Origin: a virus
Taxonomy: Duplodnaviria; Heunggongvirae; Uroviricota; Caudoviricetes
Direction: 5' to 3' (one strand)
Length of the DNA: 18,864 nt
IMG/VR virus record: IMGVR_UViG_2693429676_000005
The translations under genes and the position numbers were made by a program. The first letter of the stretch is position 1, and the number at the start of each line of letters is the position of its first letter. The notes under the pieces were generated by a model. The model saw only the letters and a program-made list of their open reading frames with translations, was not told where the DNA came from and searched no databases. Shown piece after piece: positions 1 to 18,864 of this stretch.

Positions 1-1
1 G

Positions 2-109
2 GCGAATTACCGTCTTATATCACTGGCGCTGACATCTCCGGATGACGGGGGCAGCTGTTATCTCTGGCTCAACCGTGGGCAACCACCCGCAGTTAACCGG
101 CGACGATAA
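2..109 (+). CDS. FII: 3' end of head-tail joining protein FII (5'-truncated by window edge)
   Basis: Frame 2 translates to ...TSPDDGGSCYLWLNRGQPPAVNRRR then TAA at 107-109, matching the recalled C-terminus of lambda FII (...SPDDGGSCHLWLGRGVPPAVNRRR). Sits immediately upstream of Z as in lambda. Confidence 0.6.
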   Translation, partial: ANYRLISLALTSPDDGGSCYLWLNRGQPPAVNRRR

Positions 110-123
110 ACGCAGGGTGAATT

Positions 124-699
124 ATGGCGATAAAAGGGCTTGATCAGGCGATTGACAATCTGAACCGGGTTCGTAAAAACGCCATTCCGGCTGCTTCTGC
201 AATGACCATTAACCGCGTGGCCACAACGGCGATTAATCAGTCTTCGTCACAGGTTGCCCGGGAAACCAGGGTGAGACGGAAACTGGTAAAGGAACGGTCC
301 AGACTGAAACGGGCGACGGTCAGAAATCCGAATGCCAGAATTATCGTTAACCGCGGTGATCTCCCTGTGATTAAGCTGGGGATCAGAATGCTGGGGCGTC
401 GTCCGAACAGCATACTCAAAGCCGGTCAGCATCGTTATCAGCGGGCATTTATCCAGCGATTAAATAATGGGCGCTGGCATGTTATGCAACGTCTTCCCCA
501 GGCCAGATATGAGGAGGGCAATGACGACAAGGGAAGGAAAAAGCGTAATCGCCTTCCCATTCAGGTGGTGAAAATCCCGATGGCGGCCCCACTGAAACAG
601 GCATTTGATGAGAATGTTGACCGTATCCGGCGTGAACGCCTGCCTAAAGAACTGGCATACGCGCTGAAACAACAACTGAGGATTGCGATAAAACGATGA
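124..699 (+). CDS. Z: minor tail protein Z (tail completion)
   Basis: 191-aa ORF; N-terminus MAIKGLDQAIDNL and C-terminus [22 protein letters not shown] closely match recalled lambda Z. Stop overlaps the U start (ATGA). Confidence 0.93.
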   Translation: MAIKGLDQAIDNLNRVRKNAIPAASAMTINRVATTAINQSSSQVARETRVRRKLVKERSRLKRATVRNPNARIIVNRGDLPVIKLGIRMLGRRPNSILKAGQHRYQRAFIQRLNNGRWHVMQRLPQARYEEGNDDKGRKKRNRLPIQVVKIPMAAPLKQAFDENVDRIRRERLPKELAYALKQQLRIAIKR

Positions 700-1091
700 A
701 ACACACTGACATTCGTGCCGCAGTGCTGGATGCACTCGAGCAGCATGAACACGGGGCGACGCTGTTTGATGGTCGCCCCGTTGTTTTTGACGAAGAGGAT
801 TTTCCTGCGATCGCGGTTTATCTGACGGATGCAGAGTATACCGGTGAAGAGCTGGATGCAGATACCTGGCGGGCCACACTGCATATTGAGGTGTTTTTAC
901 CGGCACAGGTACCTGATTCGGAGCTCGATCAGTGGATGGAAAGCCGGATTTATCCGGCGATGACTGCGATCCCTGCACTGGCAGGACTGATTACCACGAT
1001 GGTTACGCAGGGCTATGAGTATCGTCGTGATGACGATATGGCGTTATGGAGCTCTGCGGATCTGACTTATTCCATTACATACGAGATGTGA
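696..1091 (+). CDS. U: minor tail protein U (tail terminator)
   Basis: 131-aa [20 protein letters not shown]...[13 protein letters not shown], near-identical along its length to recalled lambda U. Confidence 0.93.
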
Positions 1092-1098
1092 GGACGAT

Positions 1099-1851
1099 AT
1101 GGCAACACCAAATCCCCTGGAGCCGGTAAAAGGTGCCGGTACCACTCTGTGGGTTTACAACGGCAAGGCTGATGCTTATGCAAACCCGTTGTCAGACGAT
1201 GACTGGCAGCGACTGGCTAAGGTGAAGGATCTGACGCCGGGCGAGATGACGGCTGAATCCTATGATGATAACTACCTGGATGATGAAGACGCGGACTGGA
1301 GCGCGACCGGGCAGGGGCAGAAATCTGCAGGTGATACCAGTTTTACGCTGGCCTGGAAACCGGGAGAGGAAGGCCAGAAAGGGCTTATAGGCTGGTTTGA
1401 AAGCGGCGATGTCCGGGCCTATAAAATCCGTTTTCCGAATGGCACGGTGGATGTGTTTCGTGGCTGGGTCAGCAGTATCGGTAAGGCCGTGACGGCGAAA
1501 GAAGTGATCACCCGCACGGTGAAAGTCACTAACGTGGGTAAACCTTCTGTAGCGGAAGAACGCAGCAAAATTACGCCGGTCAGTGCGATTAAGGTGACGC
1601 CGACATCCGGTACGGTGGCAAAAGGGAAAACAACCACCCTGACGGTTTCTTTTGAGCCGGAAAGTGCAACCGACAAGACGTTCAGAGCGGTTTCCGCCGA
1701 TCCGTCGAAAGCCACCATTAGTGTGAAAGATATGACAATTACGGTAAACGGCGTGGCGACAGGTAAGGTGCAGATCCCTGTGGTGAGCGGAAATGGTCAG
1801 TTCGCCGCAGTGGCTGAAGTCACCGTTACTGAAGCGGGCGCTGCAGGGTAA
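1099..1851 (+). CDS. V: major tail tube protein V with C-terminal Ig-like domain
   Basis: 250-aa ORF; [10 protein letters not shown]...[40 protein letters not shown] matches recalled lambda V. C-terminal part ([33 protein letters not shown]) is the Ig-like decoration domain. Confidence 0.93.
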
Positions 1852-1864
1852 ACGGAGGTAATAC

Positions 1865-2296
1865 ATGTTTCTGAAAACAGAACAATTTGAATATAACGGT
1901 GTGTCTGTCACGCTTTCCGAATTGTCTGCGCTGCAGCGTATCGAGCATCTTGCCCTCCTGAAACGGCGTGCAGAACAGGCAGAATCCAGCGGCAACCTGC
2001 AGGTAAGCGTGGAAGATCTCGTCAGAACCGGCGCGTTTCTGGTGGCGATGTCCCTGTGGCATAACCATCCACAGAAAACGCAGTCACCGTCAATGAATGA
2101 GGCCGTGATGAAGATAGAGCAGGAAGTGCTCACCACCTGGCCTGCCGATGCCATTGCCCGGGCGGAAGACGTGGTGTTGTGCCTGTCCGGGATGATCGAA
2201 GCTGTTCGTCCGGATACTGATATTACTGAAGTGGCGAAAAATAACACGCTGACTGATGATGATTTTTCTGCGGGAAAGTCTTCGACGGCGAGCTGA
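1865..2296 (+). CDS. G: tail assembly chaperone G
   Basis: 143-aa ORF, MFLKTEQFEYNGVSVTLSELSALQRIEHLALLKRRAEQAE..., matches recalled lambda G. Slippery heptamer GGGAAAG lies at 2272-2278 near its 3' end. Confidence 0.9.
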   Translation: MFLKTEQFEYNGVSVTLSELSALQRIEHLALLKRRAEQAESSGNLQVSVEDLVRTGAFLVAMSLWHNHPQKTQSPSMNEAVMKIEQEVLTTWPADAIARAEDVVLCLSGMIEAVRPDTDITEVAKNNTLTDDDFSAGKSSTAS

Positions 2297-2736
2297 ACTT
2301 TGCCCTCAGACTGGCGCGTGAGATGGGGAGACCCGACTGGCGCGCCATGCTTGCCGGGATGACATCCACCGAATATGCCGACTGGCGCCGTTTTTACCGC
2401 ACGCATTATTTTCAGGATACCCAGCTGGATATGCATTTTTCCGGGCTGACGTACGCTGTACTCAGCCTGTTTTTTTGCGATCCGGATATGCATCCCTCTG
2501 ATTTCAGTCTGCTTGTCCCCCGGCATGAGGAAGAGCAGGTGGAGAGGCCGGATGAGGACAAAATGCTGATGCAGAAAGCGGCAGGACTTGCCGGAGGCGT
2601 CCGGTTCGGTGGGGACGGAGGGCGCGATATTTTATCGTCTGCGGATGTGGCGGATGTCATGGTGGATGATGCCGCATTAATGATGGCTTCAGCGGGGATT
2701 CCGGGAGGTGTGAGATATGTCCCAGCCGGTTGGTGA
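2272..2736 (+). CDS. T: tail assembly protein T, made as a G-T fusion by -1 programmed frameshift
   Basis: Frame 1 is open from the slippery site and reads KVFDGELNFALRLAREMGRPDWRAMLAGMTSTEYADW..., matching recalled lambda T. It has no start codon or RBS of its own until M at 2323, and is -1 relative to G. Confidence 0.8.
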   Translation, partial: GKVFDGELNFALRLAREMGRPDWRAMLAGMTSTEYADWRRFYRTHYFQDTQLDMHFSGLTYAVLSLFFCDPDMHPSDFSLLVPRHEEEQVERPDEDKMLMQKAAGLAGGVRFGGDGGRDILSSADVADVMVDDAALMMASAGIPGGVRYVPAGW

Positions 2737-5307
2737 TCTTGTTATTGACCTGAGTCTGGATGCTGTCCGTTTCGATGAGCAGATGAGCCGGGTAAGGCGT
2801 CATTTTTCAGGTCTGGATACCGACGCCAGAAAAACCGCCAGTGCTGTTGAACAGGGCCTGAGCCGCCAGGCGCTGGCTGCACAAAAAGCCGGGATTTCCG
2901 TCGGGCAGTATAAAGCGGCCATGCGAACCCTGCCCGCACAGTTTACGGATATCGCCACGCAGCTTGCCGGTGGTCAGAATCCCTGGCTGATCCTGCTGCA
3001 ACAGGGCGGTCAGGTGAAGGACTCCTTCGGCGGGATGATCCCCATGTTCAGGGGGCTTGCCGATGCGATCACCCTGCCGATGGTCGGGGTCACCTCGCTG
3101 GCGGTGGCGACAGGTGCACTGGTGTACGCCTGGTACCAGGGAGATTCCACGCTTTCAGCGTTTAATAAAACCCTGGTTCTTTCCGGTAATCAGTCCGGAC
3201 TGACTGCCGATCGTATGCTGACTCTCTCAAGAGCCGGGCAGGCAGCAGGGCTGACGTTTAACCAGGCGAGAGAGTCACTGGCAGCCCTGGTGAATGCCGG
3301 TGTGCGTGGTGGTGAACAGTTTGATGCCATCAACCAGAGTGTCGCGCGTTTTGCGTCTGCATCCGGTGTGGAGGTGGATAAAGTCGCTGAAGCCTTCGGG
3401 AAGCTGACCACTGACCCGACGTCGGGACTGATGGCGATGGCGCGCCAGTTCCGTAACGTGACGGCAGAGCAGATTGCGTATGTTGCACAGCTGCAGCGTT
3501 CCGGAGACGAGGCCGGGGCATTGCAGGCGGCGAACGATATCGCCACGAAAGGCTTTGATGAGCAGACCCGTCGCCTGAAAGAAAACATGGGAACACTGGA
3601 GACCTGGGCGGATAAAACAGGGAAGGCATTCAAATCGATGTGGGATGCCATTCTGGATATCGGTCGTCCGGAATCCTCAGCGGATATGCTCGCCAGTGCG
3701 CAGAAGGCATTTGATGAGGCGGATAAAAAATGGCAGTGGTACCAGAGTCGGAGCCAGCGCCGCGGTAAAACCTCCTCTTTCCGGGCCAACCTTCAGGGCG
3801 CATGGGATGACCGGGAAAATGCCCGTCTGGGTCTGGCAGCGGCAACGCTGCAGTCGGATATGGAAAAAGCCGGTGAACTGGCGGCAAGGGACAGGGCTGA
3901 GCGTGAGTCGTCACAGCTGAAGTATACCGGAGAGGCGCAGAAGGCGTATGAGCGCCTGCTGACGCCACTGGAGAAATATACCGCCCGGCAGGAAGAGCTG
4001 AATAAGGCCCTGAAAGACGGGAAAATCCTGCAGGCGGATTACAACACGCTGATGGCGTCGGCAAAAAAGGATTATGAGTCGACGCAGAAAAAGCCGTCCG
4101 GTGTGAAGGTGTCTGCCGGTGAGCGCCAGGAAGACCAGGCGCATGCAGCCCTGCTGGCGCTTGAAACTGAGCTCAGGACGCTGGAGAAGCACAGCGGTGC
4201 GAATGAAAAAATCAGCCAGCAGCGCCGTGATTTATGGAAAGCGGAAAATCAGTATGTGGTCCTGAAAGAGGCCGCCACGAAACGGCAGTTATCTGAGCAG
4301 GAAAAATCCCTGCTGGCCCATGAGAAAGAAACGCTGGAGTACAAACGCCAGCTGGCTGAGCTGGGCGACAAGATTGAACACCAGAAACGGCTGAATGAGC
4401 TGGCACAGCAGGCGGCGCGGTTTGAACAGCAGCAGAGCGCGAAGCAGGCGGCAATCAGCGCAAAAGCCCGCGGACTCACCGACCGTCAGGCGCAGCGGGA
4501 GTCGGAAGAGCAGCGCCTTCGTGAGGTGTACGGTGATAATCCGGCTGCGCTGGCGAAGGCCACATCTGCACTGAAGAACACCTGGTCTGCGGAGGAGCAG
4601 CTTCGTGGAAGCTGGATGGCCGGGATGAAGTCCGGCTGGGGCGAGTGGGCGGAAAGTGCGACGGACAGTTTTTCGCAGGTTAAAAACGCGGCCACGCAGA
4701 CCTTTGACGGTATTGCACAGAATATGGCAGCGATGCTGATCGGCAGCGAACAGAACTGGCGTGGTTTCACCCGTTCTGTGCTGTCCATGCTGACAGAGAT
4801 TTTTCTGAAGCAGGCGATGGTGGGGATAGTCGGGAGTATCGGCAGCGCCATTGGCGGTGCTTTCGGTGGTGGTGCGTCTGCCTCCACGGGGACGGCCATT
4901 CAGGCTGCGGCGGCGAACTTCCATTTCGCGACCGGGGGATTTACGGGGACGGGGGGTAAATATGAACCTGCGGGGATTGTTCATCGCGGGGAGTTTGTCT
5001 TCACGAAGGAGGCGACCAGCCGGATTGGTGTCGGCAATCTGTACCGCCTGATGCGGGGCTATGCGGAAGGTGGTTATGTCGGCGGTGCCGGAAGTCCGGC
5101 GCAGATGCGGCGGGNNNNNNNNNNNNNNNNNNNNNAGGCATTAATTTTAATCAGAACAATCACGTGGTGATTCAGAACGACGGCCCCAACGGGCGGGCAG
5201 GGCCGCAGCTGATGAAAGCGGTGTATGAGATGGCCCGCAAGGGGGCACAGGATGAACTCCGGCTGCAGTTGCGTGATGGCGGTATGTTATCAGGGAGCGG
5301 TGGATGA
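2717..5307 (+). CDS. H: tail tape measure protein H (interrupted by a 21-N scaffold gap at 5115-5135)
   Basis: Long ORF starting MSQPVGDLVIDLSLDAVRF; start overlaps the T stop. After the N run the protein continues in another frame (GINFNQNNHVVIQNDG...LRDGGMLSGSGG) to TGA at 5305-5307, which overlaps the M start. The frame change means the N-run length is not the true gap length. Confidence 0.88.
5115..5135. other. scaffold gap (21 N) inside H
   Basis: Run of n in the sequence; reading frame differs on the two sides. Confidence 0.95.
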
Positions 5308-5633
5308 AAACCTTTCGCTGGAAAGTGAAGCCGGATATGGAGGTGAACTCGCAGCCATCGGTGCGTGAAGTGCGTTTTGGTGACGGGTACTCACAGCGTA
5401 TGGCGGCAGGGCTGAATGCTGACCTGAAAACATACAGGGTGACGCTTTCCGTGACCCGGGAGGAGGCCCGGCATCTGGAAGCGTTCCTGGCAGAGCACGG
5501 TGGCTGGAAGGCATTTTTGTGGAAGCCACCCTATGCATACCGGCAGATAAAGGTGACCTGTGCCGGGTGGTCTGCGCGGGTCGGGATGTTGCGCGTTGAG
5601 TTCAGCGCGGAGTTTAAGCAGGTGGTGAACTGA
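5304..5633 (+). CDS. M: minor tail protein M
   Basis: 109-aa ORF, MKTFRWKVKP...RVEFSAEFKQVVN, matches recalled lambda M. ATG overlaps H stop (ATGA). Confidence 0.93.
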   Translation: MKTFRWKVKPDMEVNSQPSVREVRFGDGYSQRMAAGLNADLKTYRVTLSVTREEARHLEAFLAEHGGWKAFLWKPPYAYRQIKVTCAGWSARVGMLRVEFSAEFKQVVN

Positions 5634-6331
5634 TGCAGGATATTCGCGAAGAAAGTCTGAACGAGTCGGTTAAGTCAGAGCAGTCACCGCGGGTGGTACT
5701 CTGGGAAATCGACCTGACGGTACAGGGTGGTGAGCGGTATTTTTTCTGTAATGAGCTGAATGAAAAAGGGGAGCCGGTCACCTGGCAGGGGCGTAAGTAT
5801 GAGGCATACCCGATTGACGGCAGCGGCTTTGAGATGAACGGCCGGGGCAGCAGTGCCAGACCGTCGCTGACGGTGTCCAATCTGTTCGGTCTGGTCACCG
5901 GGATGGCGGAAGACCTGCAGAGTCTGGTGGGGGCCACGGTGGTCCGCCGCCGGGTGTATGCCCGTTTTCTGGATGCGGTGAATTTCGTTGCGGGCAATCC
6001 GGAGGCGGACCCGGAGCAGGAGCTGAGTGACCGCTGGGTGGTGGAGCAGATGTCGCAGCTGACAGCCATGACGGCCTCGTTTGTGCTGGCTACACCGACC
6101 GAGACGGACGGGGCGCTGTTTCCCGGTCGCATCATGCTGGCGAACACCTGTATGTGGGATTACCGGGGAGATGAATGCGGGTATAACGGTCCTGCGGTGG
6201 CGGATGAGTTCGACAACCCCACCACGGATATCCGTAAGGACAGATGCAGCAAGTGCATGCGCGGGTGTGAACTGCGCAGGAATGTCGGCAATTTTGGCGG
6301 TTTCCTTTCCATTAATAAACTTTCGCAGTAA
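5633..6331 (+). CDS. L: minor tail protein L (tail tip, Fe-S cluster cysteines)
   Basis: 232-aa ORF, MQDIREESLNE...NVGNFGGFLSINKLSQ, matches recalled lambda L, including the C-terminal cysteine cluster (CMWDYRGDECGY...CSKCMRGC). Confidence 0.93.
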   Translation: MQDIREESLNESVKSEQSPRVVLWEIDLTVQGGERYFFCNELNEKGEPVTWQGRKYEAYPIDGSGFEMNGRGSSARPSLTVSNLFGLVTGMAEDLQSLVGATVVRRRVYARFLDAVNFVAGNPEADPEQELSDRWVVEQMSQLTAMTASFVLATPTETDGALFPGRIMLANTCMWDYRGDECGYNGPAVADEFDNPTTDIRKDRCSKCMRGCELRRNVGNFGGFLSINKLSQ

Positions 6332-6341
6332 ATCCCGGTTT

Positions 6342-7085
6342 ATGACACAGACTGAATCAGCGATTCTGGCACATGCCCGGCGGTGTGCGCCTGCGGAGTC
6401 GTGCGGCTTCGTGATAAGCACGCCGGAGGGGGAGCGGTATATCCCTTGTGTGAATATTTCCGCAGAGCCGGAGGCGTATTTTCGTATCGCACCGGAAGAC
6501 TGGCTGCGGGCAGAGATGCAGGGGGAGATTGTGGCACTGGTCCACAGTCATCCCGGTGGGCTGCCCTGGCTGAGCGAGGCTGACCGGCGGTTGCAGATAA
6601 AAAGCGCACTGCCCTGGTGGTTGGTCTGCCGGGGTGACATTCACAAATTCCGCTGTGTGCCACATCTGACAGGACGGCGCTTTGAGCACGGGGTGACGGA
6701 CTGTTACACGCTGTTCCGGGATGCTTATCATCTGGCGGGGACTGAAATGCCGGATTTTCATCGCGAGGATGACTGGTGGCGCAACGGTCAGAACCTTTAC
6801 CTGGACAATATGGCGGTCACCGGCTTTTACCGGGTGCCCCTGTCCTCTGCACAGGCGGGCGATATTCTGCTGTGCTGCTTTGGTGCTTCGGTACCGAACC
6901 ATGCCGCCATTTACTGCGGCAACGGTGAGCTGCTTCACCATCTGCCTGAACAACTGAGTAAACGGGAGAGGTATTCCGAAAAATGGCAACGACGAACGCA
7001 TTCAGTCTGGCGTCACCGCCACTGGCACGCATCTGCCTTCACGGGGATTTACAACGATTTGGCCGCCGCCTCAGCCTGTATGTGA
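6342..7085 (+). CDS. K: tail tip assembly protein K (JAMM/MPN plus NlpC/P60 domains)
   Basis: The ORF-track frame is open from 6081, but the lambda-K-like N-terminus MTQTESAILAHARRCAPAESCGF starts at ATG 6342, just after the L stop. JAMM motif HSHPGGLPWLSEAD (H-x-H-x7-S-x2-D) is visible, and an NlpC/P60-like Cys/His pair (GVTDCYTLF ... NHAAIY). 3' end overlaps I by about 100 nt. Confidence 0.85.
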   Translation: MTQTESAILAHARRCAPAESCGFVISTPEGERYIPCVNISAEPEAYFRIAPEDWLRAEMQGEIVALVHSHPGGLPWLSEADRRLQIKSALPWWLVCRGDIHKFRCVPHLTGRRFEHGVTDCYTLFRDAYHLAGTEMPDFHREDDWWRNGQNLYLDNMAVTGFYRVPLSSAQAGDILLCCFGASVPNHAAIYCGNGELLHHLPEQLSKRERYSEKWQRRTHSVWRHRHWHASAFTGIYNDLAAASACM

Positions 7086-7663
7086 ACACGGCAGCGGAAG
7101 CCATTCGCGCCCTGTCGATGCAGATGCCGGGCTTTCGCCGTCAGATGAACGAAGGCTGGTACCAGATACGTATTGCCGGTTATGACACGGCACCGGAGGC
7201 GGTGTACGCCCGTCTTCACGAACAGCTGGGTGAGGGAACGGTCATCCACATTGTGCCGCGACTGGCCGGGGCCGGAAAGGGTGGACTGCAGATTGTGCTG
7301 GGGGCGGCAGCCATCGTGGGCTCTTTCTTCACTGCCGGGGCATCAATGGCGTTATGGGGTTCAGCCCTGGCAGCCGGTGGTTTTTCTGCCACCACGATGC
7401 TGTTTTCACTTGGAGCCAGCATGATTCTGGGCGGTGTGGCCCAGATGCTGGCCCCGAAGGCAAAAACACCGGATTACCGCGCAACGGATAACGGCAGACA
7501 GAACACGTACTTTTCCTCACTGGATAACATGATTGCCCAGGGGAACCCGATGCCGGTGCCTTACGGGGAAATGCTGGTTGGCTCCCGCCGTATATCCCAG
7601 GACATCAGCACCCGTGATGAAGGCGGGGGCGGAAAGGTCGTGGTTATCGGGCGGCAGGGGTAA
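6983..7663 (+). CDS. I: tail tip assembly protein I
   Basis: 226-aa ORF; ARICLHGDLQRFGRR...YQIRIAGYD...NTYFSSLDNMIAQGN...VVVIGRQG matches recalled lambda I. Confidence 0.9.
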   Translation: MATTNAFSLASPPLARICLHGDLQRFGRRLSLYVNTAAEAIRALSMQMPGFRRQMNEGWYQIRIAGYDTAPEAVYARLHEQLGEGTVIHIVPRLAGAGKGGLQIVLGAAAIVGSFFTAGASMALWGSALAAGGFSATTMLFSLGASMILGGVAQMLAPKAKTPDYRATDNGRQNTYFSSLDNMIAQGNPMPVPYGEMLVGSRRISQDISTRDEGGGGKVVVIGRQG

Positions 7664-7671
7664 AAAGAATA

Positions 7672-7767
7672 AAAAAATCCCGCAGTGATCGCGGACAGGA
7701 ACTGCGGGAGAGTTACGAAGATTAAGTGTAAGGAATTATTCTTATATCACGACAAAAAAATTAACGC
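7672..7767 (-). ncRNA. candidate small RNA (about 95 nt) in the I-J intergenic insert
   Basis: - strand promoter (-35 TTCACA, 16-bp spacer, perfect -10 TATAAT at 7779-7774) followed about 100 nt downstream by the intrinsic terminator at 7679-7708. No ATG-initiated ORF in the interval. Prediction from sequence only. Confidence 0.35.
7679..7708 (-). terminator. intrinsic terminator for leftward transcription (hairpin then U-tract)
   Basis: Stem CCCGCAGT (7679-7686) pairs with ACTGCGGG (7701-7708). On the - strand the hairpin is followed by TTTTTTTATTCTTTTT (complement of 7661-7678). Confidence 0.6.
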
Positions 7768-7773
7768 AGAGAA

Positions 7774-7801
7774 ATTATACGCGCCACAGTCAGTTTGTGA
7801 A
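7774..7801 (-). promoter_or_regulatory. sigma70-type promoter on - strand
   Basis: - strand reads TTCACA (7801-7796), 16 nt, TATAAT (7779-7774). Confidence 0.5.
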
Positions 7802-7874
7802 AATGTGAAGATATTCAGAATTTTTATGCCATTACCGGTTTTAACCAACAGGATTATCGGTGGGCATGAAAGAA

Positions 7875-7902
7875 AACCCCGGTATCTGCTGATACCGGGG
7901 TT
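7875..7902. terminator. GC-rich perfect hairpin with T-rich flanks on both strands (bidirectional terminator-like)
   Basis: AACCCCGGTATC / tgct / GATACCGGGGTT, 12-bp stem. Followed by TCTCTTT on + and TTTTCTTTC on -. Confidence 0.45.
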
Positions 7903-8006
7903 TCTCTTTAGCATGGCAGAAATGTGTTTCATGCTTTTCGGGCGAAGGATATCCGACTTCTGTACGGAATGGCAAGTGGCGGTTAATTTATTCAGGGGAA
8001 GGCTGT

Positions 8007-10635
8007 ATGGGAAAAGGTGGCGGTAAGGCACACACGCCTCGTGAGGCGAAGGATAATCTCAAATCCACGCAGATGATGAGCGTGATTGATGCGATTGGTG
8101 AGGGACTGATAGAAGGTCCGGTGAAGGGACTGCAGAGTATCCTGGTGAACAAAACCCCGCTGACGGACACGGACGGTAATCCCGTGATACACGGTGTGAC
8201 GGCGGTCTGACGCGCCGGGGAGCAGGAGCAGACACCACCGGAAGGCTTTGAGTCCTCCGGTGCTGAAACCGGACTGGGCGTGGAAGTGACGAAGGCAAAA
8301 CCGGTGACGCGCACCATTACGTCCGCGAACATTGACCGCCTGCGGGTTACCTTCGGGGTGCAGTCACTGGTGCAGACCACGTCAAAGGGTGACCGAAACC
8401 CGACATCCGTCCGCCTGCTGATTCAGTTACAGCGTAACGGTAACTGGGTGACAGAAAAGGATGTCACCATTAACGGCAAGACCACCTCGCAGTTTCTGGC
8501 GTCGGTGATTCTGGATAATCTGCCTCCCCGTCCTTTTAACATCCGGATGGTCCGGGAGACAGCGGACAGCACCACGGACCAGCTGCAGAATAAGACGCTG
8601 TGGTCGTCATACACCGAAATCATCGATGTGAAACAGTGCTACCCGAACACGGCCATTGTGGGGCTGCAGGTGGATGCGGAGCAGTTCGGCGGCCAGCAGA
8701 TGACGGTGAACTACCATATCCGCGGTCGCATCATCCAGGTGCCGTCAAACTATGACCCGGAAAAACGCACGTACAGTGGTATCTGGGACGGTAGCCTGAA
8801 ACCGGCATACAGCAACAATCCGGCCTGGTGTCTGTGGGACATGCTGACTCACCCGCGCTACGGCATGGGAAAACGTCTGGGGGCGGCGGATGTGGACAAG
8901 TGGGCGCTGTATGCCATCGGGCAGTACTGCGACCAGACGGTCCCGGATAGTTTCGGGGAGACCGAGCCGCGGATGACCTTCAATGCGTACCTGGCACAAC
9001 AGCGTAAGGCATGGGACGTGCTCAGTGATTTCTGCTCGGCGATGCGCTGTATGCCGGTATGGAACGGCCAGACGCTGACGTTTGTTCAGGACCGCCCGTC
9101 GGATGTGGTGTGGCCGTACACCAACAGCGATGTGGTGGTGGATGATAACGGCGTGGGTTTCCGCTACAGCTTCAGTGCCCTGAAGGACCGGCACACGGCG
9201 GTGGAGGTGAATTATACCGACCCGCAGAACGGCTGGCAGACCTCCACGGAACTGGTGGAAGACCCGGAAGCCATACTGCGCTACGGACGCAACCTGCTGA
9301 AGATGGACGCGTTCGGCTGTACCAGCCGCGGTCAGGCCCACCGTGCCGGACTGTGGGTGATAAAGACCGAACTGCTGGAAACGCAGACGGTGGATTTCAC
9401 GCTCGGGTCTCAGGGGCTGCGGCACACACCCGGTGACATCATTGAAATCTGTGATAACGACTATGCCGGGACCCTGACCGGCGGACGTGTCCTGTCCATT
9501 GATGCTGCCACCCGCACTCTGACGCTGGACCGTGAAGTGACACTTCCGGAGACCGGTGCCGCCACGGTGAACCTGATTAACGGCAGCGGTAAGCCGGTGA
9601 GTGTGGACATCACCGAACACCCCGCGCCGGACCGGATACAGGTCAGTACCCTGCCTGATGGTGTGGAGACATACGGGGTGTGGGGACTCTCCCTGCCGTC
9701 ACTGCGCCGTCTCCTGTTCCGCTGTGTCTCCGTCCGGGAAAACACGGACGGCACCTTTGCCATCACGGCGGTGCAGCACGTACTGGAAAAAGAAGCCATC
9801 GTGGATAACGGTGCCCGCTTTGAGCCGCAGTCAGGTTCCCTGAACAGCGTCATCCCACCGGCAGTGCAGCACCTGACGGCCAGTATCTGGCGCAGGCGAA
9901 ATGGGACACGCCGCGGGTGGTGAAGGGTGTGCGCTTCAGTCTGCGCCTGACCAGTGGTAAGGGAACGGATGCCAGACTGGTGACCACCGCCATCACCGCA
10001 GACACGGAGCACCGTTTCAGCGGCCTGCCGCTCGGGGAATACACCCTGACGGTGCGGGCGATAAACAGCTATGGCCAGCAGGGTGAACCTGCCACCACCA
10101 CCTTCCGGATTGCCGCACCGGCAGCACCGTCGCGGATTGAGCTGACGCCGGGCTATTTTCAGATAACCGCCACGCCGCATCTTGCGGTTTATGATCCGAC
10201 GGTACAGTTTGAGTTCTGGTTCTCGGAAAAGCGGATTGCGGATATCAGGCAGGTTGAAACCACAGCACGCTATCTTGGCACGGCGCTGTACTGGATAGCC
10301 GCCAGTATCAATATCAAACCGGGCCATGATTATTACTTTTATATCCGCAGTGTGAACACCGTTGGCAAATCGGCATTCGTGGAGGCTGTTGGTCAGCCGA
10401 GTGATGATGCATCCGGTTATCTGGATTTTTTCAAAGGCGAGATAGGGAAAACCCATCTGGCTCAGGAGCTGTGGACGCAGATTGATAACGGTCAGCTTGC
10501 GCCTGACCTGGCTGAAATCAGGACGTCCATTACGGATGTCAGCAATGAAATCACGCAGACCGTCAATAAGAAACTGGAAGACCAGAGTGCGGCAATTCAG
10601 CAGATACAGAAGGTTCAGGTTGATACAAATAATAA
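8007..10635 (+). pseudogene. J: tail tip / host-specificity protein J, 5' and central part, disrupted by in-frame TGA (8208-8210) and a frameshift near 9875
   Basis: MGKGGGKAHTPREAKDNLKSTQ... matches recalled lambda J N-terminus. The same frame resumes after the TGA (RAGEQEQTPPEGFESSG...TRTITSANIDRL) and runs to 9923. Homology then continues in frame 2 from about 9875 ([20 protein letters not shown], cf. lambda GEYQVLARWDTPKVVKGV). Central FN3-like region present ([16 protein letters not shown]). Confidence 0.85.
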
Positions 10636-11078
10636 NCCCGACGGTACAGTTTGAGTTCTGGTTCTCGGAAAAGCGGATTGCGGATATCAGGCAGGTTGAA
10701 ACCAGCGCCCGCTATCTTGGCACGGCGCTGTACTGGATAGCCGCCAGTATCAATATCAAACCGGGCCATGATTATTATTTTTACGTTCGCAGTGTGAACA
10801 CCGTTGGCAAATCGGCATTCGTGGAGGCTGTCGGTCGGGCGAGCGATGATGCGGAAGGTTACTTGGATTTTTTCAAAGGAGAGATAGGGAAAACACATCT
10901 GGCTCAGGAGCTGTGGACGCAGATTGATAACGGTCAGCTTGCGCCTGACCTGGCTGAAATCAGGACGTCCATTACGGATGTCAGCAATGAAATCACGCAG
11001 ACTGTCAATAAGAAACTGAAAGACCAGAGTGCGGCAATCCAGCAGATACAGAAGGTTCAGGTTGATACAAATAATAAT
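10196..11078. repeat. two tandem, about 96%-identical copies (10196-10635 and 10638-11078) of a J internal segment, separated by a single N
   Basis: Both copies start CCGACGGTACAGTTTGAGTTCTGGTTCTCGGAAAAGCGGATTGCGGATATCAGGCAGGTTGAAACC and end GTTGATACAAATAATAA, with scattered substitutions. Probably an assembly join of two alleles. Confidence 0.8.
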
Positions 11079-11900
11079 CTGAACAGCATGTGGGCTGTGA
11101 AGCTGCAACAGATGAAGGACGGACGCCTTTATATTGCGGGTATCGGTGCCGGTATTGAGAATACGCCAGCAGGAATGCAGAGTCAGGTGCTGCTGGCGGC
11201 AGACAGGATTGCGATGATTAATCCTGCGAATGGCAACACAAAGCCGATGTTTGTTGGTCAGGGCGATCAGATATTCATGAACGACGTGTTCCTGAAACGC
11301 CTGACGGCTCCCACCATTACCAGCGGCGGTAATCCTCCGGCATTTTCCCTGACACCGGACGGAAAACTGACCGCTAAAAATGCAGATATCAGTGGCAGTG
11401 TGAATGCGAACGCCGGGACGCTCAACAATGTCACAATTAATGAGAACTGTCAGATTAAGGGGAAACTGTCAGCCAACCAGATTGAAGGCGATATAGTCAA
11501 AACAGTGGGTAAGGCTTTTCCGCGGGACTCCCGGGCACCGGAGCGGTGGCCATCAGGGACCATTACCGTCAGGATTTATGACGATCAGCCTTTTGACAGG
11601 CAAATTGTTATTCCGGCGGTGGCATTCAGCGGCGCTAAACATGAGCGGGAGAATAACGATATTTATTCGTCATGCCGCCTGATAGTACGGAAAAACGGTG
11701 CTGAAATTTATAACCGTACCGCGCTGGATAATACGCTGATTTACAGTGGTGTTATTGATATGCCAGCTGGTCGCGGCCACATGACGCTGGAGTTTTCGGT
11801 GTCAGCATGGCTGGTGAATAACTGGTATCCCACAGCAAGTATCAGCGATTTGCTGGTTGTGGTGATGAAGAAAGCCACCGCAGGCATCAGTATCAGCTGA
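10638..11900 (+). CDS. J: J 3' portion, allele A (receptor-binding C-terminus ending ...[10 protein letters not shown])
   Basis: Frame 0 from 10638 reads [21 protein letters not shown]...[54 protein letters not shown]..., which matches the recalled lambda J C-terminal region. Stop at 11898-11900. Confidence 0.7.
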
Positions 11901-12014: not shown

Positions 12015-12018
12015 NNNN
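12015..12018. other. scaffold join (4 N) between lom 5' fragment and J allele B
   Basis: NNNN joins two unrelated sequence contexts (lom start, then J internal sequence). Confidence 0.9.
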
Positions 12019-12924
12019 AAACTGGAAGACCAGAGTGCGGCAATTCAGCAGATACAGAAGGTTCAGGTTGATACAAATAATAACCTGAACAGCATGTGGG
12101 CTGTGAAGCTGCAGCAGATGCAGGACGGACGCCTTTATATCGCGGGTATTGGTGCCGGTATTGAGAACACCCCTGACGGCATGCAGAGTCAGGTGCTGCT
12201 GGCGGCGGACAGGATTGCGATGGTTAATCCTGCGAATGGCAACACAAAACCGATGTTTGTTGGTCAGGGCGATCAGATATTCATGAACGACGTGTTCCTG
12301 AAACGCCTGACGGCCCCCACCATTACCAGCGGTGGAAATCCATCGGCATTTTCCCTGACTCCGGACGGAAAGCTGACCGCTAAAAATGCGGATATCAGTG
12401 GCAGTGTGAATGCGAACGCCGGGACGCTCAACAATGTCACGGTAAATGAAAACTGTACGATTAAGGGCATGCTGGAGGCGACTCAGGTCAGAGGTGACTT
12501 CGTTAAAGCTGTATCCAAATCATTTCCGAAACAGGCTGGTACGTGGGGTAACACGGAAACACCAAACGGGACGGTTACAGTCACCATAAGCGATGATCAT
12601 AACTTTGACCGCCAGATTATTATTCCGCCCATTATTTTTAACGGTATAGCGTATGACGATCCGGGGAGCGGAAATAACCCAGGAGGCACGCGATACACGG
12701 GTTATGGTTTTGAAGTTCGCAAAAACGGCGTATTAATCGCATCCAGAGAAACTAAAGGTGCCATTCCCGGTAGTTACAGTGCAGTTATTGATATGCCTAG
12801 TGGTGGTGGTAGCGTCACTCTGGAGTTTAAGATTTTCCAGAAAGGCAATCAGGGGGCAGGCAATATCACCGACTGTACGGTGATTGTGACCAAAAAAGCG
12901 GCTTCCGGCATCAGTATTCGTTGA
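12019..12924 (+). CDS. J: J 3' portion, allele B (distinct receptor-binding C-terminus ending ...KKAASGISIR); likely the true continuation of J from 10635
   Basis: 12019-12083 is identical to 10571-10635, so the two pieces overlap as unitigs. Downstream reads [24 protein letters not shown]...[53 protein letters not shown]..., then a C-terminal about 140 aa unrelated to allele A. Stop at 12922-12924. Confidence 0.75.
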   Translation, partial: KLEDQSAAIQQIQKVQVDTNNNLNSMWAVKLQQMQDGRLYIAGIGAGIENTPDGMQSQVLLAADRIAMVNPANGNTKPMFVGQGDQIFMNDVFLKRLTAPTITSGGNPSAFSLTPDGKLTAKNADISGSVNANAGTLNNVTVNENCTIKGMLEATQVRGDFVKAVSKSFPKQAGTWGNTETPNGTVTVTISDDHNFDRQIIIPPIIFNGIAYDDPGSGNNPGGTRYTGYGFEVRKNGVLIASRETKGAIPGSYSAVIDMPSGGGSVTLEFKIFQKGNQGAGNITDCTVIVTKKAASGISIR

Positions 12925-12946
12925 AATATTTATAACCCCAATAAAT

Positions 12947-12973
12947 GGCGTCAGGAATGACGCCTTTTTTATT
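12947..12973 (+). terminator. intrinsic terminator after J allele B
   Basis: GGCGTCA / ggaa / TGACGCC followed by TTTTTTATT. Confidence 0.65.
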
Positions 12974-12994
12974 GCAGAAAAGCGAGAGGTAATT

Positions 12995-13594
12995 ATGCGT
13001 AAAGTTTGTGCAGCCATTTTGTCCGCAGCCATTTGCCTGGCCGTATCCGGTGCGCCTGCATGGGCGTCTGAACATCAGTCCACACTGAGCGCGGGGTATC
13101 TTCATGCCCGTACGAACGCTCCCGGCAGCGATAATCTGAACGGGATTAACGTGAAATACCGTTATGAGTTTACGGACGCGCTGGGGCTGATTACGTCCTT
13201 CAGTTATGCCAATGCTGAGGATGAGCAAAAAACGCACTACAGCGATACCCGCTGGCATGAAGATTCCGTGCGTAACCGCTGGTTCAGCGTGATGGCGGGG
13301 CCGTCTGTACGCGTGAATGAATGGTTCAGCGCGTATGCGATGGTGGGTGTGGCTTACAGCCGTGTGTCGACTTTCTCCGGGGATTATCTCCGCGTAACTG
13401 ACAACAAGGGGAAAACGCACGATGTGCTGACCGGAAGTGATGACGGTCGCCACAGCAACACGTCTCTGGCGTGGGGGGCTGGCGTGCAGTTTAACCCGAC
13501 CGAATCCGTGACCATTGACCTTGCTTATGAAGGTTCCGGTAGTGGTGACTGGCGAACGGATGCATTTATTGTTGGTATCGGATACCGTATCTGA
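12995..13594 (+). CDS. lom: outer membrane protein Lom (Ail/Lom/PagC family beta-barrel; prophage moron)
   Basis: 199-aa ORF with signal peptide MRKVCAAILSAAICLAVSGAPAWA. Motifs GINVKYRYEFTD, SVMAGPSVRVNEWFSAYAMVGVAYSR and C-terminal AYEGSGSGDWRTDAFIVGIGYRI match recalled lambda Lom. Position after J as in lambda. Confidence 0.9.
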   Translation: MRKVCAAILSAAICLAVSGAPAWASEHQSTLSAGYLHARTNAPGSDNLNGINVKYRYEFTDALGLITSFSYANAEDEQKTHYSDTRWHEDSVRNRWFSVMAGPSVRVNEWFSAYAMVGVAYSRVSTFSGDYLRVTDNKGKTHDVLTGSDDGRHSNTSLAWGAGVQFNPTESVTIDLAYEGSGSGDWRTDAFIVGIGYRI

Positions 13595-13745: not shown

Positions 13746-16502
13746 ATGACAGTAAAAATTTCTGGCGTGCTTAAAGATGGCACAGGAAAACCAGTACAGA
13801 ACTGCACCATTGTGCTGAAGGCCAGACGAACCAGCAGCACGATGGTGGTGAACACGGTGGCCTCTGAAAATCCGGATGAAGCCGGACGTTACAGCATGGA
13901 TGTTGAGCATGGTCAGTACAGCGTCACCCTGCTGGTTGAAGGTTTTCCGCCTTCACATGCCGGGACCATTACCGTCTATGAAGGTTCCAGACCAGGTACG
14001 CTGAATGATTTTCTCGGTGCCATGACGGAGGATGATGTCCGACCGGAGGCACTGCGCCGCTTTGAGCAGATGGTGGAAGAGGTGTCACGTAACGCCTCCG
14101 CGGTTGCACAGAATACGGCAGCCGCGAAAAAATCAGCCAGCGAGGCGGCAACTCATGCAACCGATGCTGCAGCCTCAGCACGTGCCGCCAGCACGTCAGC
14201 CGGACAGGCCGCGTCGTCGGCTCAGTCAGCGTCTTCCAGCGCAGGAACGGCATCGACAAAGGCCCGTGAAGCAGCAAAAAGTGCTGCTGCAGAGTCATCA
14301 AAAAGCGCGGCAGCTACCAGCGCCAGTGCCGCGAAAACGTCAGAAACGAATGCCGCAGCATCACAAAAATCGGCAGCCACTTCTGCATCCACAGCGACCA
14401 CGAAGGCGTCAGAAGCTGCCACCTCGGCACGGGGTGCGGCGGCCTCAAAAGAGGCAGCGAAATCTTCAGAAACGAATGCATCATCGAGTGCCAGTAGTGC
14501 AGCTTCCTCGGCAACGGCGGCAGGAAATTCCGCGAAGGCGGCAAAAACGTCCGAGACGAACGCTAAGTCTTCTGAAACAGCAGCGGGACAGAGCGCCTCA
14601 GCTGCGGCAGGTTCAAAAACAGCGGCTGCATTATCTGCCAGTGCCGCGTCAACAAGTGCCGGGCAGGCCTCAGCCAGTGCCACCGCCGCCGGAAAATCGG
14701 CAGAAAGCGCCGCATCATCCGCTTCAACAGCCACAACGAAGGCTGGCAAAGCCACTGAGCAAGCCACTGCAGCAGCGAGGTCTGCTTCTGCAGCAAAAAC
14801 CTCTGAAACAAATGCAAAGACTTCAGCAGACAATGCTGCTTCCTCTAAGGCAGCAGCCGCATCGTCAGCCAGTTCAGCGGCGTCATCGGCATCATCTGCG
14901 TCTGCTTCAAAAGATGAGGCGACCAGACAAGCGTCAGCAGCGAAAGGTAGTGCCACGACAGCAACAACGAAAGCATCAGAGGCGGCAGGCAGTGCGACGG
15001 CTGCATCTCAGAGCAAAGTTGCTGCTGAATCCGCGGCAACGCGCGCCGAGACAGCAGCAAAACGGGCAGAGGATATTGCATCCGCCGTGGCGCTTGAGGA
15101 TGCGAGCACGACGAAAAAGGGGATAGTACAGCTCAGCAGTGCGACCAACAGCACTTCCGAGTCACTGGCGGCAACGCCAAAAGCGGTTAAGGCGGTAATG
15201 GGTGAAACGAACAAGAAAGCGCCCTTAAATAGTCCTGCACTGACCGGAACGCCAACAACACCAACTGCGCGACAGGGAACGAATAATACCCAAATCGCAA
15301 GCACGGCTTTCGTTATGGCTGCGATTGCCGCCCTTGTAGATTCGTCACCTGATGCACTGAACACGCTGAACGAGCTGGCTGCGGCGCTGGGCAACGACCC
15401 GAATTTTGCGACCACCATGACTAACGCGCTTGCGGGTAAGCAACCGAAAGATGCCACCCTGACGGCGCTGGCCGGACTTACTACTGCGGCAGGCAAGTTT
15501 CCGTATTTTACGGGGAATGATGTCGCCAGCCTGGCAACCCTGACAAAAGTCGGGCGGGATATTCTTGCGAAATCGACCGTTGCTGCCGTTATCGAATACC
15601 TCGGTTTACAGGAAACGGTAAACAAGGCTGGTAACGCCGTTCAGCGTTCCGGCGATAAAATGACCGGAGAACTGAAAATTGGCACGGTGAATGCGCTGCG
15701 AATTTTCAATGATACCTTCGGTCTAATTTTCCGTCGTTCAGAAGATTTTCTTCATTTCATTCCGACGGCTGAAGGACAAGGCGAAAACGGTAATATCGGC
15801 CCATTAAGGCCATTCGCTATAAATCTGAGAACAGGTGCTATATCTGTCAGCCACGGGGCCAAAATTAAAGGAGGTCTAGCTATTGGAGCTACTGATAACG
15901 CACTGGGTGAAAACTCCATTGTTCTGGGAGATAACGACACCGGATTTAGGCAAGATGGAGATGGTATTATTAGCTTCTATTCAAATGGTTCGCGCATCGG
16001 ACATATTGATGAGTTAGGATTACATCTTTATAAAGATATTGAATCTAATGGCAGCAATTTTAGATTAAAAAGTAATTACCGCCACCACATTACATTCGCC
16101 AACGAAGACGGAAGAATTCGTATGTTTTTGTGGAAAGATAACGGTGGTGATGGTGTTCATATTAATAACGGTTCAGATGGTGGTGGTGATTTCATTTTTA
16201 AAACAGATGGGGGATTTGCGCTGGGAAGTGGTGCGCAAGTTGCGTCTAGTGGCGATATTTATGGTTCAGTGTGGGAAAACAACTGGTTAAGCACATGGCT
16301 GCATAATCATGTCGTTCGGGATATTCGTCTTGGCAGCATTGAATATAAAAACGTATGGCGCGACTACGGCTTTGGCGATGCGTCAGGTTATGTTTTAACA
16401 GCCGCAATTAACAGCAATGCGGATGATATTGTCGACACTGTTGCCAGAAGGCCAATTCAGAAATTGATTGGGGGAATATGGTACAACGTGGGGAGTGTTT
16501 AA
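13746..16502 (+). CDS. stf: side tail fibre protein Stf (constant N-terminal part plus invertible variable C-terminal part)
   Basis: 918-aa ORF. N-terminus [28 protein letters not shown]...[33 protein letters not shown] is near-identical to recalled lambda Stf, followed by a long Ala/Ser/Thr-rich repetitive shaft (KTSETNA repeats). The region after the crossover site at 15589-15614 is the exchangeable tip. Confidence 0.9.
15589..15614. other. left crossover site for invertase (gix/pix/hix-like, 26 bp), inside stf
   Basis: TTATCGAATACC TC GGTTTACAGGAA. The reverse complement of the right site (18505-18530) is TTATCTAAAACC TC GGTTTACGAGAA, giving 21/26 identity in inverted orientation, two 12-bp half-sites around a 2-bp core. 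Matches the recalled gix pattern. Confidence 0.7.
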
Positions 16503-16503
16503 G

Positions 16504-17031
16504 ATGATGCACCTGAAAAATATTAAGGCCGGGAATCCGAAAACACCGGAACAATACCAGCTAACTAAAAAAGCGGGCGTGGTATGGCTCTTTTGCGAAG
16601 ATGGCAAAAACTGGTATGAGGAACAAAAGAATTTTCAGCCAGACACCATAAAAATTGCTTACGATGAGAACAACATCATCGTTGCTGTCAGTAAAGACGT
16701 TTCAACTATTAATCCTGAAGGGCTAAGCATAGTTGAAGTTCCTGATATTACGGCAAATCGTCACGCAGACAATAACGGAAAATGGATGTTTCTGGATGGT
16801 AAAGTAGTAAAGAGGGAATATACAGAACAGGAACTGCAACAACAGGCCGAATCACAAAAGGCCGCATTGCTTTCCGAAGCTGAATCAGTCATCCAGCCGC
16901 TGGAACGCGCTGTCAGGCTGAATATGGCAACAGACGAGGAACGCACACGACTGGAAGCATGGGAACGCTACAGTGTTCTGGTCAGCCGTGTGGATACGGC
17001 AAATCCTGAATGGCCACAAAAGCCTGAATAA
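16504..17031 (+). CDS. tfa: tail fibre assembly chaperone Tfa (partner of + orientation fibre tip)
   Basis: Starts 1 nt after the stf stop: [41 protein letters not shown]... This is a typical Tfa N-terminus and is paralogous to the inverted copy at 17060-17593. Confidence 0.88.
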
Positions 17032-17036
17032 AAATT

Positions 17037-17056
17037 AAGGCCCGATAGCGGGCCTT
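17037..17056. terminator. hairpin between convergent tfa genes (terminator, U-tract on - strand)
   Basis: AAGGCCCG / atag / CGGGCCTT. On the - strand it is followed by AATTTTTATT. Confidence 0.6.
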
Positions 17057-17059
17057 CTC

Positions 17060-17593
17060 TCATTCTGGTTGTTCGGGAAACGTTACTGGCAGGCTGGAGG
17101 TGTCTGTGGATTCAACCTTCTGCGCATAGAGCATCCACTCGGTTAATTTTTGTTTATTCTCATCGGAAATGATGCCCAGCTGTAGCTGAGAGTCCCACAG
17201 CTGGGTTTTATCCCTGACGAGCTGCAGCAGGCTCTGCTTTTCATTTTCCGCTTGTTGCCTTTGCTCTTCCTCGGTATAAGTTCGCTTTATCACCGCACCA
17301 TCTTTGAACATCCAGTTGCCCGAAATATCAGCCCGGCGATTTGCTGTAATATCAGGCAACTCAACGACACTTAAACCTTCTGGATTAATTGCTGATACAT
17401 CCTTGTCTATAGCAATAATTATTCCCTCAACTGTGTAAGCCAGTTTTATTGTATCCTCCTGAAAGTTTTTTAATTCCTCATGCCAATTTTTTCCATCTTC
17501 GGACCATAACCAGATAACATCAAAATTCTTTGTTAGCTGGTATTGTTCAACGGTTTTTGGATTACCTGCGACAATGTTTTTTAAATGCTGCAT
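17060..17593 (-). CDS. tfa: tail fibre assembly chaperone Tfa' (alternative, inside invertible segment)
   Basis: 177-aa [43 protein letters not shown]..., with a conserved N-terminal about 95 aa shared with the + strand Tfa and a different C-terminus. Confidence 0.88.
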
Positions 17594-17595
17594 GA

Positions 17596-18522
17596 TTATA
17601 CCTGCGATACGTTATACCATGTTCCGTTAATTAACTTTTGTATTGGTCTGAATACTGCCGGATCATCACCATCGACTTCACCGATAATACCAAGCCCCGT
17701 GATTACATGGCCTGATTTTTCATACATCACGCCTTTCTTCATGGTCTAAACAACTCGTGTGCCAAGTCTGACATCTCTCACATAGCGGGAATCAAAGTTA
17801 CCGTAATCCGAGGGATTAACACGTCCCGTAATATTTATGGTTTTATTACTTTGAATGCTTCCGGAGACAAAGCGCATAACATGGACGTTATTAGCATAAA
17901 CATCCAGATTACCATCGCCTTTTTGTTTAAAGCCCGTGTCATTATCACCCAATACAATCGAATTACCGCCAAGAGCACTGGATGTTCCGATACCCAGTGC
18001 ACCATTCAGTTGACCACCAGATAACGGCAGTGCACCAACATCTCCTGCTGAAGGTTTTCTGGTGGTGTAAAATTCGGACCAGTCGGCTTCAAAACCATAA
18101 CCATCACGGGCTGAACGATAAAAAATACCGCCATTTTTATAATTAATCCGAAACTGAGCTGCAGGACAACTTCCTTCTCCCATATAAAAATGAATAATTA
18201 ACGTTGATGCACCACTAATAGTTGCGTTATAGGCTCCGCTACTCCAGTTCCATCCAACTGCTTTATCATTCGCAACGGTGCTTCCTGTTTTCCCTAAGGC
18301 AAACGCACCAACATGACTTGCTTTTAATGTGATATCGGAGGAACCATCAAAAGCCACATTGCTTATTTTCCTGGCAGTTTTTAATTTTGCAGCTGTAGAA
18401 GCATTGCCGGATAGTTCACCAGAAAGGCCACCGCTGAATGTTTGTCGATTAGTCCAGGTATTCGCTGTACTGAGTAACGGTATTTTCTCCCCGCTTGTGC
18501 CGAGTTCTCGTAAACCGAGGTT
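17596..18522 (-). pseudogene. stf: alternative tail fibre variable C-terminus (Sv'), no own start codon, interrupted by in-frame TAG at 17746-17748
   Basis: - strand frame is open from just inside the right crossover site (NLGLRELGTSGEKIPLLSTANTWTNRQTF...) with no ATG. Contains [21 protein letters not shown], paralogous to Stf [21 protein letters not shown]. After the TAG the same frame continues for 48 codons ending [18 protein letters not shown], paralogous to the Stf C-terminus [18 protein letters not shown]. Confidence 0.75.
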
Positions 18523-18530
18523 TTAGATAA
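18505..18530. other. right crossover site for invertase (gix/pix-like, 26 bp)
   Basis: TTCTCGTAAACC GA GGTTTTAGATAA, close to the recalled Mu gix sequence TTCCTGTAAACCGAGGTTTTGGATAA. Lies directly upstream of the invertase gene, as in Mu, P1 and e14. Confidence 0.75.
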
Positions 18531-18584
18531 TGGCGGTTTCTGGCCTGCATGGCATGATTTGTGCTTTTGGACGGGAGATTCAGC

Positions 18585-18864
18585 GTGCTGATTGGCTATG
18601 TAAGGGTATCAACAAATGACCAGAATACAGACCTGCAACGAAACGCTCTTGTTTGTGCAGGATATGAACAAATATTTGAAGATAAATTAAGCGGAACAAG
18701 GACAGGCCGACCTGGATTAAAACGTGCTTTAAAGCGCCTTCAAAAAGGTGACGCACTGGTTGTCTGAAAACTGGACTGACTGGGTCACTGTATGCGGCAT
18801 CTTGTCGTGCTGGTGGTGGAAGCCTAGAAAAAGTATCGGGTGTTGCTGAACCGTGTTGATACAT
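18585..18864 (+). pseudogene. pin: Pin/Gin/Hin-family serine DNA invertase, 5' part; in-frame stops after codon 60; 3' end beyond window
   Basis: From GTG 18585: (M)LIGYVRVSTNDQNTDLQRNALVCAGYEQIFEDKLSGTRTGRPGLKRALKRLQKGDALVV, near-identical to recalled Pin/Gin N-termini including the catalytic Ser in VRVSTNDQ. TGA then replaces the conserved W of VVWKLDRLGR (18765-18767), with a second TGA (18777-18779) and a TAG (18825-18827) in the same frame. Confidence 0.8.

Follow-up and report, generated by a model that had tools for sequence, protein, structure and literature searches.

The in-frame TGA of gene J in a defective Shigella sonnei prophage is an inherited nonsense mutation in a pseudogene

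The window analysed here is a stretch of 18,864 nucleotides held as virus record IMGVR_UViG_2693429676_000005 (Caudoviricetes). Its gene J, the counterpart of lambda gpJ, occupies the lambda-type position, downstream of K and I and upstream of lom and stf, as in annotated relatives. J opens with the ATG at 8007 and runs for 67 sense codons to a TGA at 8208–8210, with C as base 8211, as can be read both from the sequence and from the list of open reading frames (ORFs). Past the TGA, translation continues in the same J frame (…NPVIHGVTAV(stop)RAGEQEQTPPEGFESSG…), and comparison with lambda J places a sense codon here, the lambda protein reading GVTVVFRAGEQEQ. The ORF listing gives a 67-aa ORF at 8007..8210 and a 547-aa ORF with a GTG start at 8280..9923. 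The facts about the J stop that had been stated in the original prediction are confirmed. The features on which the argument turns are as follows, all on the plus strand.

1..109, + strand: left edge of the surviving tail module, with 35–109 the 3′ remnant of the head-tail joining gene FII
8007..8210, + strand: J pseudogene fragment 1, which ends in the premature TGA after 67 codons
8107..8107, + strand: C>T, giving Pro34Leu in the GEGPIEGP motif, elsewhere invariant, with Pro in every intact homologue compared
8208..8210, + strand: nonsense codon TGA from ancestral TGG (Trp68), through G>A at 8210, then C
8211..9923, + strand: J pseudogene fragment 2, the in-frame continuation, with the 547-aa ORF from GTG 8280 and a stop at 9921–9923
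9872..9880, + strand: junction of a 22-bp deletion between two CTGACGG direct repeats, causing a frameshift; the breakpoint may lie anywhere in the interval
9881..10170, + strand: authentic start of J pseudogene fragment 3, in the frame of 8009, identical to S. sonnei 53G, with Pfam Ig_J and Ig_J_second
10171..10635, + strand: end of the first contig, a chimeric assembly product from a paralogous J copy, with 25 mismatches to 53G
10637..11900, + strand: authentic 3′ part of the J pseudogene on the second contig, restarting 442 bp back and 100% identical to 53G
12019..13040, + strand: third contig, starting inside the 3′ end of a paralogous J, 93% identical to the authentic copy and mis-scaffolded after NNNN

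Across the three J fragments the Pfam matches (PF24801, PF13550, PF24421, PF24489, PF09327 and PF12421) keep the order of lambda gpJ: FNIII-A_GpJ, Phage-tail_3, Ig_J, Ig_J_second, Phage_Tail_Tip, Ig_GpJ_C. The first two are found in fragment 2, the last two in 10637..11900, where the J stop codon ends at 11900. Between these parts the scaffold itself is faulty. Runs of N lie at 5115–5135, 10636 and 12015–12018, and after the joins at 10636 and 12015–12018 the sequence restarts inside J: positions 10638–10937 repeat 10196–10495 at 94% identity, and 12019–12083 are identical to 10571–10635. The window is a chimeric draft scaffold, two stretches of which come from a paralogous J copy that is 93–94% identical. 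With this copy spliced in and artificial N gaps present, the J region of the window is unfit for host-range or tail-fibre typing. The 21-N run at 5115–5135 replaces only 4 real bases and artificially splits the tape-measure gene H, which is intact at 857 aa in finished genomes.

An alignment of J homologues, proposed in the original prediction as a way to identify the ancestral codon, gives TGG (Trp) in the closest intact J genes. In a stretch of 551 bases surrounding the stop, the window shares 99.6% identity with the intact gpJ gene of E. coli ATCC 25922 and of about 20 other complete genomes. Only two differences from ATCC 25922 occur in this interval, C>T at 8107 (Pro34Leu) and G>A at 8210 (TGG>TGA). 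Codon 68 is Trp/TGG in ATCC 25922, FDAARGOS_1255, the locus L015, phage vB_EcoS-569R3 and Stx2 phage 1717, Phe/TTC in lambda and phage Evi, and Tyr/TAC in Gifsy-1; among the functional J homologues compared, position 68 is always aromatic and Pro34 is invariant. Given TGG in the closest J genes and an aromatic residue in all homologues, the stop is a one-step nonsense mutation of a Trp codon. The DNA of J is 98.4–99.6% identical to the intact J genes of ATCC 25922 (WP_016265923.1) and FDAARGOS_1255 (WP_059293907.1). Unlike these, it carries Trp68>stop, Pro34Leu and a 22-bp frameshift, and no full-length product is possible.

The original prediction had favoured a nonsense mutation or a base-call error at this site. 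The first half of that statement holds, as a single G>A transition converts TGG to TGA, whereas the second is contradicted by ten assemblies that carry TGA-C. If the TGA were a base-call or assembly error in a low-quality draft, the true codon would be TGG, and there is something to be said for such a view: the change involves a single base, and the scaffold is a poor one, joined by N at three places and containing inserted pieces of a paralogous J. The TGA allele is moreover absent from complete E. coli genomes, where 60/61 is the closest agreement over 1337 records with 2780 J places. We considered taking this absence as a sign of error and rejected it: the collection of complete E. coli genomes leaves out Shigella, and a look-up of the exact protein settled the question. 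In species-representative genomes a 40-mer containing the TGA found no match, and the control 40-mer with TGG likewise found none, so that this J variant is absent there; since the positive control also fails, these scans are uninformative on the TGA allele.

In the public assembly collection the exact 67-aa product turns up in 633 blocks, of which 15 have contigs >1 Mb. It is recorded on 551 contigs, and the exact 547-aa product is recorded on 248, under Shigella sonnei names; the public name of the latter product is ‘host specificity protein J [Shigella sonnei 53G]’, and the source names also include ‘host specificity J domain protein [Shigella sonnei 53G]’. At the site itself, GTC TGA C was read in 10/10 retrieved loci (L003–L012). 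These come from ten different assemblies, finished chromosomes and 53G included, and in eight cases from records of 4.5–5.0 Mb. The chromosome of S. sonnei 53G is HE616528.1 (PMC5447701), and positions 1–10170 of the window are base-for-base identical to it apart from the N run. With ten assemblies and hundreds of contigs carrying the same allele, the TGA is genuine and inherited in the S. sonnei prophage lineage. An error in the draft would have to have arisen identically in ten independent assemblies, finished chromosomes among them, to have left its truncated product on 551 contigs, and to sit in a stretch otherwise the same as 53G; we consider it exceedingly improbable.

The stop is accompanied by a second inactivating lesion about 1.67 kb downstream, at about codon 625, where 22 bp are missing. 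The reference for lesions was FDAARGOS_1255, the closest intact relative at 98.4% over 10 kb; the intact locus L015, with an identical gpZ, was tried as a near-ancestral reference and set aside, as it reaches only 97.3% overall against the 98.4% of FDAARGOS_1255. At the deletion site FDAARGOS_1255 reads CACCTGACGG-TGGAGGTGAGCGCAG-CTGACGG-ACAGTAT and the window reads CACCTGACGGCCAGTAT. All complete E. coli genomes match this site in two pieces spanning 93 bases, not 71, and thus keep the 22 bp. The deletion was found in all S. sonnei loci retrieved (ten assemblies). A sequencing-type indel error at 9880 was also considered and dismissed, the change being a deletion of 22 bp between 7-bp direct repeats that is present in all finished genomes. 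The frame of 8007 meets the TGA at 9921–9923 after 13 out-of-frame codons, which are the final 13 of fragment 2, and J goes on in the next frame; the 547-aa ORF therefore ends where it does because of this frameshifting deletion. In finished S. sonnei chromosomes J measures 3452 nt, which is no multiple of three, and is called as 67 + 547 + 513 (or 509) aa.

Decay of J is continuing without constraint, as the pseudogene differs at a few SNP positions among S. sonnei strains and one strain, represented by L011, has an extra 17-bp deletion (J nt 1654–1670). At window position 9712 (J nt 1706), three alleles, T, A and G, are found among the ten S. sonnei assemblies. The original prediction had named the finding that would turn J into an ordinary pseudogene, namely the same stop together with other decay in the J genes of related genomes, and this is what the S. 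sonnei loci contain.

Gene callers nevertheless give three consecutive ORFs that jointly cover all the J Pfam domains, and it could be argued that J has been deliberately split, the 67-, 547- and 513-aa ORFs being translated separately through reinitiation at GTG 8280 and GTG 9917 and assembling into a working tail tip. The split is, however, limited to one recent clone, and no intact relative has such an architecture. Its breaks were caused by a nonsense mutation and by a slippage deletion, neither of them at a domain boundary, 23 residues (69–91) are lost between the first two ORFs, and the extra 17-bp deletion in one strain shows an absence of constraint. A working split J is therefore extremely unlikely, and the three ORFs are better regarded as the remains of one inactivated gene.

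A different kind of rescue is raised by the base that follows the stop, UGA-C being reportedly the weakest termination context in E. coli. The original prediction had allowed that such a leaky stop might matter, but leakiness cannot rescue J, given the 22-bp frameshift downstream and the loss of the head and lysis genes. In its fullest form the proposal would be that UGA-C is a functional leaky stop, a case of regulated or programmed recoding, at which readthrough by Trp-tRNA yields a useful J or a useful N-terminal fragment of it. Besides the weak context, the intact state of the neighbouring tail genes is in keeping with this proposal. So is the readthrough of UGA in E. coli at about 10^-3 to 10^-2, which depends on how the Trp-tRNA(Trp) ternary complex competes with RF2 (PMC10570021) and would restore the ancestral Trp. 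A programmed readthrough site would, however, be expected to have a conserved stop, a 3′ stimulatory element and an intact downstream ORF, and J has none of these. Every functional homologue examined is without the stop, with 0 exact matches in 2780 J places and W, F or Y in the phage homologues. The 551 flanking bases show one other difference from the TGG-bearing relatives, so no stimulatory element has evolved, and the post-stop sequence is that of these relatives. Folding of the 71 nt that start at the stop is no more stable than that of shuffled sequences (z = -1.24), and no Rfam family matched anywhere in the window. Finally, the frameshift at 9872–9880 ruins the downstream frame, and the receptor-binding half of the protein cannot be made: any readthrough product stops at 9921–9923, comprises 638 of the 1157 residues and lacks the Ig-like, Phage_Tail_Tip and Ig_GpJ_C receptor-binding domains. 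In a prophage without head and lysis genes, a functional leaky stop in J is very unlikely. What the site shares with ordinary background readthrough by Trp-tRNA(Trp) (PMC10570021) is the UGA followed by C and a near-cognate Trp that is also the ancestral residue. Such decoding probably takes place here at the usual 10^-3 to 10^-2 and would be without functional consequence. The RF2 of S. sonnei carries Ala246 and is a better terminator than that of K-12.

Selenocysteine is a still poorer candidate. Beyond an in-frame UGA nothing points to it; the ancestral codon is Trp, not Cys or Sec, and homologues have Trp, Phe or Tyr. No SECIS family reached threshold, there is no significant downstream hairpin, and the downstream sequence is the same as in genes that carry TGG. 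The probability of selenocysteine at this UGA is negligible.

The condition of the remaining prophage agrees with J as a pseudogene. Upstream of the tail genes, S. sonnei 53G and CP061367 both carry, in this order, RusA, Q antiterminator, methylase, SASA-domain protein, holin, DUF1327, IS3-family element, IS21 and gpZ; genes for endolysin, terminase, portal, protease, decoration, capsid, FI and FII are not called upstream of gpZ in either genome. The IS21 copy and the IS3-family element (region 6871–9810 of locus L013) lie between holin/DUF1327 and gpZ, in place of the endolysin-to-FII block. The window becomes homologous to intact prophages at base 35, within the final 75 bases of FII. Intact prophages have nothing that corresponds to bases 1–34, which in finished chromosomes directly adjoin the IS21 copy, and from this position we infer that they are the end of an IS. 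L015, by comparison, combines its identical gpZ with Nu1-A-W-portal-C-D-E-FI-FII and an uninterrupted 1157-aa J.

The tail module has not decayed uniformly, however, since its other genes are full length: Z, U, V, G, T, H, M, L, K, I, lom, stf and tfa are all full-length ORFs in finished genomes, and the first ten of these, Z to I, have the same lengths in S. sonnei as in L015. Some residual use of the tail cluster is thus conceivable. One could further imagine that a 638-aa N-terminal fragment of J (FNIII-A and Phage-tail_3), made by readthrough of UGA-C with the ancestral Trp, joins tail-tip assembly alongside the intact Z to I, and that it might complement or poison the tails of co-resident lambdoid prophages, for example Stx phages; we give this little credence, rating it as highly improbable. 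Two further observations concern the same region. The heptamer GGGAAAG at 2272–2278, near the end of the gpG homologue (1865–2296) and before gpT (2323–2736), appears intact and matches the lambda G/GT -1 frameshift site. A spacer of 343 nt (7664–8006) separates the I stop from the J start and is present, unannotated, in E. coli relatives; the ORF at 7685–8026 (113 aa, GTG start) has no Pfam match.

At the other end of the window, a Gin/Pin-like invertase gene (18585–18830) matches Gin residues 1–79 (PDB 4m6f, E = 2e-41). It has in-frame TGAs at the Trp and the Arg of the Gin motif VVWKLDRLG, the first of which is another TGG>TGA change, and its homology to Gin is lost after about residue 80 of 193. 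This gene, too, is a pseudogene. The adjoining invertible tail-fibre segment (15585–18534) lies between 30-nt inverted repeats at 15585–15614 and 18505–18534, which resemble the gix/cix crossover sites; inside it, alternative C-termini for the fibre and genes for tail-fibre assembly lie on opposite strands. One of the finished S. sonnei genomes, CP044151 (L006), has the segment inverted relative to the window and the other loci. Because the resident invertase gene is a pseudogene, this inversion polymorphism would need an invertase supplied in trans.

We conclude, with a probability of about 0.95, that the window represents, in draft-scaffold form, a defective lambdoid Shigella sonnei prophage and that its J is a pseudogene. 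A gpJ is expected to be a single ORF of about 1130–1230 codons, and this one is broken by the TGA at codon 68 and the frameshift at about codon 625; it is therefore a J pseudogene and not a functional member of the family. The features of a pseudogene are present on several counts. There is an inactivating lesion relative to close intact genes (TGG>TGA against genes 99.6% identical), there are several independent lesions with ongoing decay (the 22-bp deletion, Pro34Leu and the 17-bp deletion of L011), and the lesions are inherited, ten assemblies being identical at both sites and the truncated product occurring on 551 contigs. Other phage functions have gone as well, with two IS elements in place of endolysin-to-FII and an invertase that is truncated and has two nonsense codons. 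Every Shigella reference genome has 199 or more pseudogenes, and much of the degradation of these genomes is driven by the expansion of IS elements (Hawkey et al. 2020, PMC7373316). The present locus resembles the IS-degraded prophages of Shigella (PMC7373316) in its combination of a nonsense mutation with an indel, in the fixation of both in a clone, in the loss of neighbouring genes to IS elements and in decay at the level of single strains. It differs in one respect from this pattern (PMC7373316), in that J itself was inactivated by point and indel changes and not by the insertion of an IS.

The state of the locus is thus as follows. The G>A change at 8210 turned the TGG of Trp68 into TGA, at which RF2-dependent termination frees a 67-aa peptide. 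A deletion of 22 bp between the CTGACGG repeats, of the kind typical of slipped-strand events, shifts the frame, so that a ribosome passing the TGA would end at 9921–9923 with a product of 638 aa, the last 13 of them out of frame. Both lesions are inherited, being identical in ten independent S. sonnei assemblies. The endolysin-to-FII block has been lost to IS elements, and the invertase gene has two nonsense codons. These lesions probably accumulated neutrally once the prophage was defective.

In summary, J in this prophage is an ordinary pseudogene, already annotated as fragments in the source genomes. It carries little biological weight, as one among hundreds of pseudogenes in Shigella sonnei. 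Its use is as a worked negative example: an in-frame UGA-C should be checked against the finished genomes of its own lineage, and for further lesions downstream, before recoding is invoked.
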